From a virus (lineage: Duplodnaviria > Heunggongvirae > Uroviricota > Caudoviricetes): a DNA stretch of 32,361 bases. This document shows positions 6,489 to 8,556 of this stretch, piece by piece. The stretch lies in the IMG/VR virus record IMGVR_UViG_2695420763_000014; one strand, written 5' to 3'. Every line of letters starts with the position of its first letter. Position 1 is the stretch's first letter. The translations under genes were made by a program, and so were the position numbers. The notes beneath the pieces were generated by a model. That model made no database searches and was not told the origin of the DNA. It saw only the letters and a list, made by a program, of their open reading frames with translations.

Positions 6489-6657
6489 AACATCGTATTC
6501 GTGGCTGGGGAAATTTACCACGGTGAAACAGGAATGCCCGACCTGCGGTAATGAATCCCCTGAATATCTGAAAGAGTGCCCTCATTGTGGCGGGCAGAAA
6601 TGCAACCACTGCGATATGGGCGATGACACGGCGTGCATGAATTGTGAAGGTGAGTGA
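6475..6657 (+). CDS. small Cys-rich zinc-ribbon-like protein
   Basis: 60 aa with four CxxC pairs (CPTC, CPHC, CNHC, CMNC); SD ggaggt upstream. Confidence 0.5.
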   Translation: MENSETSYSWLGKFTTVKQECPTCGNESPEYLKECPHCGGQKCNHCDMGDDTACMNCEGE

Positions 6658-6658
6658 T

Positions 6659-6967
6659 ATGAATAATGGTGTATTTTCAAAATCAGAAGAGCTTGCCGCC
6701 CTGCTGATTGCCGGTGGTTTGCCGAAAAAAGAAGTGCATGACTTTGTGAATTTTGTATATGAGCCGTCTCATGAAAAAGCTATTGATGAGGTCATGGCGT
6801 ACCGGTTTGGCATTATTGCTGAGTCACTGAGTCCTCACTGGATTATTGAAAATCTCCGCGCTATTGCTGATGGCAACGATAAATCAGCAGCCGTTGCTGC
6901 ACTGGATGTGTTACGGCAAATGAGTCTGAAATTTTATCCTGAATTTATTCTGAGGGCCGCAAAATGA
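6659..6967 (+). CDS. small early protein, unknown function
   Basis: Start placed at ATG 6659 (MNNGVF...), right after the previous stop; an in-frame GTG at 6644 is the alternative. Confidence 0.5.
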   Translation: MNNGVFSKSEELAALLIAGGLPKKEVHDFVNFVYEPSHEKAIDEVMAYRFGIIAESLSPHWIIENLRAIADGNDKSAAVAALDVLRQMSLKFYPEFILRAAK

Positions 6968-7266
6968 ACAATGAAGATAAATTTACACCCCTTAATATTG
7001 ATAACGTCATGGCTGAAAAAGGGATGCTGGAGCGTGTTCGCGCTATCGTTGAATATGGTATTAAGCATGGACTCACCGCCAGAGAAGTTCGTGACATTAT
7101 CAACCGCGAAATGAATCGTCTGGAAACAGTAGTGGCACTGCAAAATGAAACAGCCCGCGAGGAGTACATCCGCCGCAGGCTGGGGTTATCAGACCAGGAT
7201 ATTGTTACTGACGCTCATGTGTTTGAGGCTTTTGAGATCCGTCAGCATCTGGGTCTAACGAACTGA
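6964..7266 (+). CDS. small early protein, unknown function
   Basis: 100 aa ORF with ATGA stop-start overlap; its 3' end is overlapped by the antisense ORF 7205-7471. Confidence 0.45.
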   Translation: MNNEDKFTPLNIDNVMAEKGMLERVRAIVEYGIKHGLTAREVRDIINREMNRLETVVALQNETAREEYIRRRLGLSDQDIVTDAHVFEAFEIRQHLGLTN

Positions 7267-7471
7267 TAATGTCTTCCATGATCTTTGACAGTTGCAGTTT
7301 TTCGCGGCGGCTTGTTCTCATTGCAGGCGCATCTTTTAAAATCTCTGCTGAAGAGCTGAAAATGGCTTTGCCCTCTTCTGCGGTGATGATCGCCTTCTTC
7401 ACCAGAAGGCGCACCAGCGCTGATGCAATCGCATAGCCTGCAACATCATAAGGTTGTACATTATTTTCCAT
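7205..7471 (-). CDS. hypothetical protein on the opposite strand, in the gap before gemA
   Basis: 88 aa ORF, ATG at 7471, SD-like gagagga 5 nt upstream on the minus strand; lies in an otherwise non-coding 275-bp + strand gap; its 3' end overlaps the previous + strand ORF by 62 nt. Confidence 0.35.
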   Translation of the reverse strand: MENNVQPYDVAGYAIASALVRLLVKKAIITAEEGKAIFSSSAEILKDAPAMRTSRREKLQLSKIMEDIISSLDPDADGSQKPQTHERQ

Positions 7472-7541
7472 AAAATCCTCTCTGATTGATGTGTAAATTC
7501 AGGCGGTGTTGCAGCACCGCCCCCTTTCCGGAGGTACGATC

Positions 7542-8093
7542 ATGAGTCGCACATCCCTGATTAAATTAATTCATGTCGCCCGTCGGGAGCTACAACTCGA
7601 CGACGACACTTACCGCGCTTTTCTGATGCAGAAAACGGGCAAAATCAGTTGCCGCGAGCTGACGGTCACGCAACTGGAACAGGTGCTCGATGCCATGAAA
7701 GAACGCGGCTTTAAGAAGCTGAATAAATACCCCCGTCGCCGCTTTAAGGGGCATGTCACGCCCCGCGAGAAGGTGTATAAAATCTGGCAGCAGATGGCAG
7801 AAGACGGTTTTATTGCCGATGGCGGTGATGTGGCGCTGGATAAATATGTTCAGCGCCTGACCGCGAAACGCAACGGCGGACAGGGCGTTTCCACACTGGC
7901 GTGGTGTCATGGCGACACGCTGCTGACAGTCCTCGAAACACTCAAGCAGTGGCACATCCGCTGTATTCGTGAAGCCTTTTCCCGTCACGGGCTTCCATTG
8001 CCGGTCAGTCCGTCCGGTCGTGAACTGCGCGGCTATGATGCCATGACGGCGGCTTATGCCCATGCCAGAAAGACACGGAGGATGGCACAATGA
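7542..8093 (+). CDS. gemA: GemA-like protein (Mu gp16 family)
   Basis: Start at ATG 7542 with SD ggagg 7 nt upstream; 183 aa; directly upstream of and overlapping mor (ATGA), as in Mu. Confidence 0.6.
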   Translation: MSRTSLIKLIHVARRELQLDDDTYRAFLMQKTGKISCRELTVTQLEQVLDAMKERGFKKLNKYPRRRFKGHVTPREKVYKIWQQMAEDGFIADGGDVALDKYVQRLTAKRNGGQGVSTLAWCHGDTLLTVLETLKQWHIRCIREAFSRHGLPLPVSPSGRELRGYDAMTAAYAHARKTRRMAQ

Positions 8094-8479
8094 CGGAAGA
8101 TTTATTTGGTGATTTGCAGGATGACACCATCCTGGCACATCTTGACAATCCCGCAGAGGATACGTCACGCTTTCCGGCACTGCTGGCGGAGCTGAACGAT
8201 TTACTACGCGGGGAATTGTCCCGGCTGGGTGTTGATCCTGCCCATTCACTGGAGATTGTTGTGGCTATCTGTAAGCATCTGGGCGGCGGTCAGGTCTACA
8301 TTCCACGCGGTCAGGTTCTGGACTCGCTGATTCGGGATTTGCGTATCTGGAATGATTTTAACGGTCGCAACGTCAGCGAACTGACCACCCGTTATGGTGT
8401 CACTTTCAATACGGTTTACAAGGCCATTCGCCGGATGCGACGGCTGAAATACCGCCAGTACCAGCCCTCACTTCTGTAA
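8090..8479 (+). CDS. mor: Mor, middle operon regulator (Mor/C family transcription activator)
   Basis: 129 aa, same length as Mu Mor; paralogous to the downstream C protein (shared ...GG.QVYIP.G / GGRQFYIPCG and ...NGRN motifs); followed by an intrinsic terminator. Confidence 0.85.
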   Translation: MTEDLFGDLQDDTILAHLDNPAEDTSRFPALLAELNDLLRGELSRLGVDPAHSLEIVVAICKHLGGGQVYIPRGQVLDSLIRDLRIWNDFNGRNVSELTTRYGVTFNTVYKAIRRMRRLKYRQYQPSLL

Positions 8480-8484
8480 ACAGT

Positions 8485-8510
8485 AAAGCCGGTTAATCCG
8501 GCTTTTTTTA
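8485..8510 (+). terminator. rho-independent terminator at the end of the early operon (position of Mu t9.2)
   Basis: Stem agccgg (8487-8492) / ccggct (8498-8503), loop ttaat, followed by a run of 6 T; lies 6 nt after the mor stop. Confidence 0.75.
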
Positions 8511-8556
8511 CGCCCTCAATATCCTGTGATGAATAACCGTACCGGGGGAAATCATC
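8511..8556 (+). promoter_or_regulatory. candidate middle promoter Pm region (Mor-dependent)
   Basis: By position only: between the early terminator and the first middle ORF; contains tgtgatgaat, a possible extended -10. No Mor site verified. Confidence 0.3.

Follow-up and report, generated by a model that had tools for sequence, protein, structure and literature searches.

Does the reading frame that runs against the early operon of a Mu-like phage, just in front of gemA, represent a gene, and does the stem-loop next to it belong to it? The question was raised by a stretch of 32,361 nucleotides (nt) from a virus of the Caudoviricetes (IMG/VR record IMGVR_UViG_2695420763_000014), hereafter the window, which is of the Mu/SfMu type and approximately 98% identical to Mu and to Shigella phage SfMu. 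Window positions correspond to Mu positions (AF083977) minus 691. A previous inspection of the letters by a model without database searches, referred to here as the sequence-only reading, had pointed to a gap of 275 bp before gemA, to a minus-strand open reading frame (ORF) of 88 amino acids (aa), and to a GC-rich inverted repeat beside it. Both the gap, between the stop of an E15-family gene at 7266 and the gemA ATG at 7542, and the ATG start and coordinates of the ORF (7205-7471, minus strand, stop codon included) were confirmed. Comparison with related phages and prophages indicates that the ORF is a real gene that has been omitted from the reference annotation of Mu and is already present in the databases as a hypothetical protein; that it is also expressed is very probable. 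New in the present analysis are the evidence deciding between the strands, a wider protein family spanning the Mu and D108 slots, the invariant interlock with E15, a predicted terminator within E15, and the separate status of the hairpin.

Coding strand of the ORF

According to the sequence-only reading, all other genes are located on the plus strand, and this is indeed the case for all ORFs of 120 aa or more with a counterpart among the known Mu genes. Since the window contains many antisense ORFs longer than 88 codons, the length of the minus-strand ORF alone proves nothing, and its significance comes from comparison with relatives. The reference Mu records (AF083977/NC_000929) contain no leftward gene at this position; annotated instead is Mu_54 on the plus strand (7269-7436, 55 codons). 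The minus frame and the Mu_54 frame share third codon positions, so that substitution periodicity is unable to separate them, and measures at the amino-acid level and surveys of stop codons were used for this reason. The window was compared with the STEC388 prophage lineage (27 E. coli genomes; 67% nt identity over the ORF). Across this distance the minus frame was kept at 88 codons in both lineages without any insertion or deletion, whereas the Mu_54 frame comprised 55 versus 61 codons. Amino-acid identity amounted to 51-53% in the minus frame and to 42-43% in the Mu_54 frame, with BLOSUM sums of 179 and 120 and omega values of 0.31-0.39 and 0.52-0.57, respectively. Frame conservation and the ratio of nonsynonymous to synonymous substitution rates (dN/dS) across Mu-like prophages, which had been proposed as a check, thus came out in favor of the minus strand. 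Within the 13 lineages that were included, dN/dS of the antisense gene ranged from 0.15 to 0.56 where measurable; between subfamilies dS was saturated while the proportion of nonsynonymous differences (pN) reached only 0.16-0.39. Window and Mu differ by two nucleotides within the ORF, both synonymous in the minus frame, and the two proteins are 100% identical.

It is extremely unlikely that Mu_54, translationally coupled to E15, is the real gene and that the minus-strand ORF is its antisense shadow. Mu_54 is the annotated gene of the reference record, in the Mu and STEC388 lineages its frame is open and its ATG directly adjoins or overlaps the stop of E15, and the shared third codon positions prevent periodicity from telling the two frames apart. 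The higher omega and the lower BLOSUM score given above nevertheless disfavor this frame. Its stop is not conserved, and it is interrupted by an internal stop in loci L011 and L013 (loci of relatives are given as L plus number where required) and by 2-6 stops in D108, L014, and L016, in all of which the minus-strand gene is intact. No PHROG family and no distant homologs were found for Mu_54, whereas the minus-strand protein has a family with a conserved motif. Finally, the best-conserved stretch (7437-7458) is located past the stop of Mu_54 and within the minus-strand ORF. We therefore judged Mu_54 to be a shadow of the antisense gene rather than a gene.

Start site and existing annotation

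A Shine-Dalgarno (SD) element, GAGAGGA, precedes the antisense ATG at 7476-7482 on the minus strand. The element itself had been recognized by the sequence-only reading; the spacing, however, is 4 nt when read directly from the sequence and not 5. SD-like motifs (AGGA, GGAG, or AAGG) occurred 4-9 nt ahead of the conserved ATG in 12 of the 12 lineages compared. The protein matches PHROG 8747 over its full length (E = 6.6e-60; residues 1-88 versus profile positions 1-88 of 88), and the STEC388 ortholog matches the same profile with E = 6.2e-26.

According to the sequence-only reading, Mu is not known to have a leftward gene at this position. This is correct for AF083977/NC_000929, but not for the older Mu left-end record M64097, in which the minus-strand ORF is listed as putative 'F-134' (Q38493). 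The gene is also annotated in SfMu (gp16) and, by the NCBI Prokaryotic Genome Annotation Pipeline (PGAP), in E. coli prophages (WP_000431116.1 and the diverged WP_079916120.1). In the annotation of D108 the gap was left empty. At L009, in E. coli 06-00048, the antisense ORF is open, intact, and 88 codons long, yet unannotated by PGAP; at the same locus (1002-1328) the E15 stop TGA is changed to GGA, which extends E15 by 4 codons. No mention of the antisense gene was found in the literature on SfMu, the Yersinia phages, and Mu lysis.

A predicted terminator within E15

Downstream of the antisense gene, a rho-independent terminator is predicted on the minus strand at 7141-7182. It starts 22 nt past the stop codon and lies within the E15 coding sequence; the minus-strand RNA reads CAGCCUGCGGCGGAUGUACUCCUCGCGGGCUG followed by UUUCAUUUUG, with the stem running from 7182 to 7151 and the U-rich tail thereafter. 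A GC-rich stem with a U-rich tail occurred at the homologous position, 9-63 nt past the antisense stop, in 11 lineages. In a comparison of 7 sequences from 5 lineages, 12 of 12 predicted pairs were kept, 3 of them with compensatory double changes. The stem was more stable on the strand of the antisense gene in 9 of the 11 lineages (for example, -21.3 versus -8.8 and -19.2 versus -10.5 kcal/mol), a strand difference that is due to G-U pairs. An independent terminator scan called the element in D108, L014, and L011. In the Mu record, a TransTermHP terminator is entered at Mu 7839-7873 (window 7148-7182) inside Mu_14 (E15) in the plus-strand row. Its U-rich tail and its more stable fold are those of the minus strand, just past the stop of the antisense gene, and the strand appears to be misassigned. 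We consider it probable, with good confidence, that the antisense gene has its own terminator in E15. As its SD/ATG is conserved and its frame selected, the gene would with this terminator possess a translation start, a frame under selection, and its own transcription stop. The case would also show that an intrinsic terminator can be encoded within a protein-coding sequence of the opposite strand and be kept there by compensatory changes.

Two further elements in the window bear on terminator prediction. A stem-loop with a T-run at approximately 8477-8506 (AAAGCCGG TTAAT CCGGCTTTTTTT) falls within the annotated middle promoter (8472-8542), where mor ends. It was not flagged by the terminator scan, and the Mu record has a TransTermHP terminator at the matching place, indicating that a simple scan misses some real terminators. 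On the minus strand in the 5' part of gemA (7638-7653), approximately 170 nt upstream of the antisense gene, a terminator-like sequence, GGCAACTGATTTTGCC followed by CGTTTTCTGC, was observed. The same element occurs at L005 (1636-1651) and in D108; with a stem of 5 bp, it may be due to chance.

Interlock with E15

The E15-family early gene (6964-7266, plus strand, 100 aa, PHROG 6075) and gemA (7542-8093, plus strand; Pfam GemA, E = 5.8e-31; SD GGAGG at 7530-7534) are the convergent and the divergent neighbor of the antisense gene, respectively. At 30 of 30 further loci, the antisense gene is directed against the early operon, diverges from gemA, and converges with an E15-family gene whose 3' end it overlaps. 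The same arrangement is present in the window, where the overlap with E15 is 62 nt, and in Mu, SfMu, D108, and STEC388. The antisense ATG is separated from gemA by 60-75 bp at all but one of the 30 loci, the exception being the distant prophage L016, in which the antisense/E15 pair lies approximately 1.1 kb from gemA. At 33 gemA loci without the antisense gene, no E15 homolog was present either, the deletion phage vB_YpM_3 excepted. Judging from these loci, E15 and the antisense gene are inherited, diverge, and are lost together as one module just left of the stem-loop before gemA. What is gained and lost is the pair and not the antisense gene alone. Chance, the alternative that had been raised for the ORF, is ruled out by the PHROG 8747 family, the intact frame, the dN/dS values, and this conserved architecture.

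The early ORF upstream of E15 (6644-6967, 107 aa) is common to SfMu and Yersinia phages and absent from Mu. The match to Mu begins only at window 6961, and this stretch is therefore an SfMu-like mosaic and not Mu itself.

Gain and loss of the module

In the Yersinia phages vB_YpM_3 and vB_YpM_23, a segment of 223 bp (7268-7490) is cleanly deleted between TGAT repeats (7264-7267 and 7487-7490). Two E. coli prophages (H79 and H80) gave the same two-piece match pattern as the deletion phages and may carry the same deletion. Four Yersinia phages, with or without segment 7268-7490, lyse their host Y. pestis at 37 C and lysogenize it at 26 C (PMC10434027). As the deletion phages still lyse and lysogenize, the antisense gene is dispensable for plaque formation and lysogeny. 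The G+C content of E15 and the antisense gene is 46%, compared to 55% for gemA and 53% for the whole window. The sequence-only reading had suggested a moron. The predicted terminator of its own, the presence/absence polymorphism, and the lower G+C content (46% versus 53-55%) agree with this suggestion, but no promoter of its own was found.

The slot is occupied differently in other relatives. The D108 slot contains a different minus-strand ORF of 119 aa. In a Citrobacter braakii ATCC 51113 prophage (L033, 2022-2429, minus strand), E15 and its partner are absent and an unrelated antisense ORF of 136 aa takes their place, which is DUF2513-like at a sub-threshold E of 6e-4. Because of this unrelated ORF, the slot left of the gemA hairpin may be regarded as a general landing site for leftward accessory genes, as the Citrobacter prophage suggests. 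E. coli prophage elppa5 and phage PhiR68_1 carry other genes in the slot, on the plus strand. In Mu-like prophages of Kluyvera, Xenorhabdus, Vibrio, Shewanella, and Pseudomonas, neither such a slot nor a member of the family was found. At L011 and L012 (3052-3387, plus in locus orientation), a second called gene of 111 aa is located between gemA and mor and is antisense to the early operon; it had no Pfam match.

A small protein family of Mu-like prophages

The slot proteins of Mu and D108 were not significantly similar in a pairwise BLASTP comparison. At the level of profiles, Mu-type and D108-type proteins both match phrog_32893 (E = 6e-4, 1e-7, and 5e-7) and align over a shared core. A wider family of antisense proteins links PHROGs 8747, 38610, and 32893, a relationship visible only by profiles. 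A word-indexed protein search returned near-identical proteins only. With a profile of 5 sequences, 16 proteins were found among 1.84 billion cluster representatives. Fifteen are small (60-119 aa) and share the motif [YF]D.AG[YF].[IL]A[SG].L...L[VI].KG[VI]I...[ED][AG]..I; the sixteenth is an outlier, a repetitive coiled-coil-like protein of 536 aa (E = 3e-4). In a degenerate search of viral contigs, the family-wide alignment was too diverse, and two subfamily alignments were used instead. By these searches, the antisense protein is a member of a small family restricted to Mu-like prophages.

The AlphaFold model of the antisense protein consists of about three helices (residues 8-25, 31-46, and 61-72) and a short turn (49-53). 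The first two helices are predicted confidently, with a predicted local distance difference test score (pLDDT) of 82-91 for residues 11-40. No Pfam match was obtained for the window protein at E <= 1. Weak matches to SHOCT-like_DUF2089-C occurred in 3 of the 16 family members (best E = 0.0014) and to SHOCT_2 in two (0.046), all below the Pfam threshold. None of the PADLOC-DB defense profiles matched the window protein, three relatives, the Citrobacter slot protein, or E15 at E <= 1, and a search of Rfam gave no match above threshold. A component of a type I toxin-antitoxin system or a small membrane toxin was considered and rejected, as hydrophobicity gave no support for a transmembrane helix, the hydrophobic helix is broken by charged residues, and the tails are acidic. 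In a Kyte-Doolittle analysis, a crude test of hydrophobicity, the best mean over 19 residues was 1.45 for the window protein and 0.9-2.0 across the family.

The stem-loop upstream of gemA

The inverted repeat GGCGGTG/CACCGCC reported by the sequence-only reading is present at 7502-7521. It forms a GC-rich stem-loop of 7-6-7 architecture that precedes the ATG of gemA by 20 nt and that of the antisense gene by 30 nt, and it is the only exact copy of the repeat in the window. The predicted folding energy is -14.8 kcal/mol, with z scores of -4.0 on the plus strand and -2.6 on the minus strand. A hairpin occurs 19-21 nt ahead of the gemA ATG in every Muvirus-type relative, including the cassette-free vB_YpM_3 and elppa5. 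The sequence-only reading had placed the hairpin just upstream of the antisense ORF; since it is also found in relatives without the ORF, it does not belong to the ORF cassette. The stems differ in sequence while pairing is kept, as in L014 (AGGCCGCGC/GCGTGGCCT), L053 (GGCGGCT/AGCCGCC), and L016 (GACGGCG/CGCCGTC). We read the hairpin as a conserved structural element of the intergenic region outside the ORF cassette.

The tail of the hairpin on the early strand is T8 in L033 and T5 in L011; on the other strand it is often ATATTTATTA. The hairpin of L011 was called terminator-like on both strands. A function as a leaky or weak bidirectional terminator or insulator in the gemA leader is plausible, and we hold it tentatively, at somewhat less than an even chance; stabilization of an mRNA end is possibly another. 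A G-U test of strand asymmetry at first seemed to favor the early strand and was dropped when the count was 5 versus 5 over 10 lineages. Mor sites consist of two 5-bp repeats in a 16-bp dyad element centered at -43.5, according to PMC4390567. A Mor-type site was rejected for the hairpin: its center at 7511.5 would place a start at approximately 7555, inside gemA, or at approximately 7468, inside the antisense start codon, and no -10 hexamer was present at the required distance. No resemblance was found between the hairpin and the Pm region (8472-8542).

Proposed explanation and alternatives

The explanation that we favor, with somewhat better than even confidence, is that the antisense ORF is a genuine gene forming a self-contained leftward transcription unit within the rightward early operon. 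The unit would consist of the SD/ATG at 7471, the 88-codon frame, and an end at the terminator (7182 to 7141) within E15. Because the gene faces Pe-driven transcription head-on and has a predicted terminator of its own, it would most likely be expressed mainly while Pe and the early operon are repressed, i.e., in the lysogen. Its RNA would match the early mRNA without a mismatch over the final ~125 nt of E15 and over most of the spacer between E15 and gemA, and could in this way damp early leak-through into gemA-mor. Low-level early transcription is described in the literature to occur in prophages. The hairpin at 7502-7521 would, as a leaky bidirectional terminator or insulator, separate the leftward unit from gemA-mor. 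From the architecture, we infer a lysogen-biased accessory unit with a cis-antisense effect as the most likely arrangement; that the gene has a lysogen-biased accessory role of the moron type is put forward with reserve, as slightly less probable than its opposite.

Several observations weigh against this explanation. No sigma-70-like promoter was found on the antisense strand of 12 lineages in the hairpin-to-SD spacer, in the 5' end of gemA, or in the 2 kb further right, and the minus-strand promoter which the sequence-only reading had proposed to look for at 7472-7560 was found neither there nor further right. The search comprised scanning of four sources with a promoter tool, hexamer matching under relaxed criteria in 12 lineages, the geometry of Mor sites, and a check by eye for a sigma-54 motif in the hairpin; promoters that are weak or depend on an activator escape scans of the consensus type. 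In the literature searched, neither transcriptome nor proteome data bearing on this part of Mu came to light. In the window, the hairpin is followed by a poor U-tract (CCCTTTCC on the plus strand, TGAATTTA on the minus strand), and the terminator scan made no call. In one relative (L052, 2001-2264, IMG/VR UViG_2757320581_000005), the antisense gene is cut short by a stop at codon 44, whereas the gene is intact in the closely related L051; this stop is consistent with the gene being dispensable. The co-inheritance with E15 may reflect the physical overlap only. In addition, searches of PADLOC, NCBIfam, and Pfam, a PDB sequence search, and fold searches gave no functional lead and no support for an exclusion or anti-defense role.

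The gene could also be real and act as a lytic-programme partner of E15, the convergent pair controlling E15 and the passage of early transcription into gemA-mor and thereby timing middle transcription through the antisense RNA, the small protein, or both. We regard this as rather unlikely. The strict co-occurrence at 30 of 30 loci, which includes L016 with its pair far from gemA, would fit such a partnership, and so would the position of the antisense 3' end and terminator inside E15, which guarantees complementarity between the two RNAs, and the location immediately upstream of gemA-mor, at the entry to the middle phase. Strict co-occurrence is, however, expected from the physical overlap alone, E15 is retained in the phages with the 223-bp deletion, which remain able to lyse and lysogenize, and selection on the protein shows that there is more to the function than the RNA. 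A more elaborate proposal, which we consider improbable, is a hitherto unrecognized switch made up of two interlocked, convergent genes, E15 and the antisense gene, and placed where the semi-essential early region borders on gemA-mor. Leftward transcription, ending at the terminator within E15, would together with the stem-loop gate the early transcription that reaches mor, and the target of the SHOCT-like protein would be E15 or a host component.

The region might, alternatively, be regulatory and not code for protein, serving as 'semi-early' promoter and leader of the gem operon, with an incidental ORF and with the hairpin serving as operator palindrome for a dimeric regulator of divergent promoters. 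This is very improbable. The Mu record indeed contains a 'semi-early promoter' at window 7460-7526, for which it cites PMID 9454718 and which covers the start of the antisense gene, its SD, and the hairpin. Constitutive expression of the gem operon in lysogens was reported as well (Paolozzi & Ghelardini 1992, as cited in PMC3820752), and the 7-6-7 palindrome between the two divergent start codons is perfect. A promoter would nonetheless explain at most ~70 bp and not the 267 bp of a selected frame, and it would not be mutually exclusive with a gene. The palindrome retains its pairing although its sequence varies, a pattern more in line with a folded structure than with a single conserved protein site, and the geometry of the hairpin does not fit a Mor-type site. 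The leftward, self-contained transcription unit thus remains our preferred explanation.

Significance for the Mu map

As it is taught, the transcription map of the reference phage Mu runs rightward except at the repressor gene. This map would have to be corrected for a second leftward gene, one with independent termination. The gene is conserved in Mu, D108, SfMu, and many prophages of E. coli, Shigella, and Yersinia, near-identical prophages being carried by E. coli W, LY180, KO11FL, and S17-1, and it would replace Mu_54/Mup15 in the annotation; a terminator, at present apparently assigned to the wrong strand, would be added. It would join a region where several genetically named early functions such as arm and cim stand beside ORFs that are largely uncharacterized. 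The gene is located at the entry to gemA-mor, the step licensing middle and late transcription, and the gem operon is poorly understood. If the two-gene switch were true, it would be a second checkpoint, downstream of the repressor, on the commitment of Mu to middle and late development. In Mu-like phages of Pseudomonas, a link between the gem operon and sensitivity to Gabija was described recently (PMC12407980).

Comparison with known systems

The family core L..L[VI].KG[VI]IT..E[AG]..I resembles the consensus of the SHOCT and SHOCT-like domains (Pfam PF09851, PF22746, and PF20612). All matches are, however, sub-threshold, with none for the window protein, and the motif forms the core of a free-standing protein here. 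SHOCT is usually a C-terminal appendage, and we know of no established function for it.

In the Pseudomonas Mu-like phage Fc02, olg1 and gene 10 provide a parallel, as described in PMC9936078: in this transposable phage, too, a gene is located opposite the early lytic operon and overlaps an early gene. Expression in the lysogen, determined by strand-specific RNA-seq, and superinfection-exclusion activity are reported there for olg1/gene 10 (PMC9936078). The Fc02 genes lie at the left end beside the repressor gene and share a transcript with it, whereas the Mu gene is located approximately 7 kb away beside gemA. No sequence relationship to the Mu antisense gene was detected.

The 'semi-early' promoter of the Mu gem operon occupies the same 70-bp intergenic region, and gem is the one part of the early region that is reported to be active in lysogens. 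This promoter is annotated as rightward and drives gemA-mor rather than a leftward gene.

Morons are said to have been defined for lambdoid phages by Hendrix and colleagues as independently transcribed accessory genes inserted into phage operons. The antisense gene resembles them as a small gene between two genes of a conserved operon that is present or cleanly absent in close relatives, deviates in G+C content, has its own predicted terminator, and is dispensable. It differs from them in the lack of an identifiable promoter and in that its 3' end and terminator are embedded in the early gene E15. The mobile unit, moreover, is here a convergent pair of two genes rather than a single cassette of promoter, gene, and terminator.

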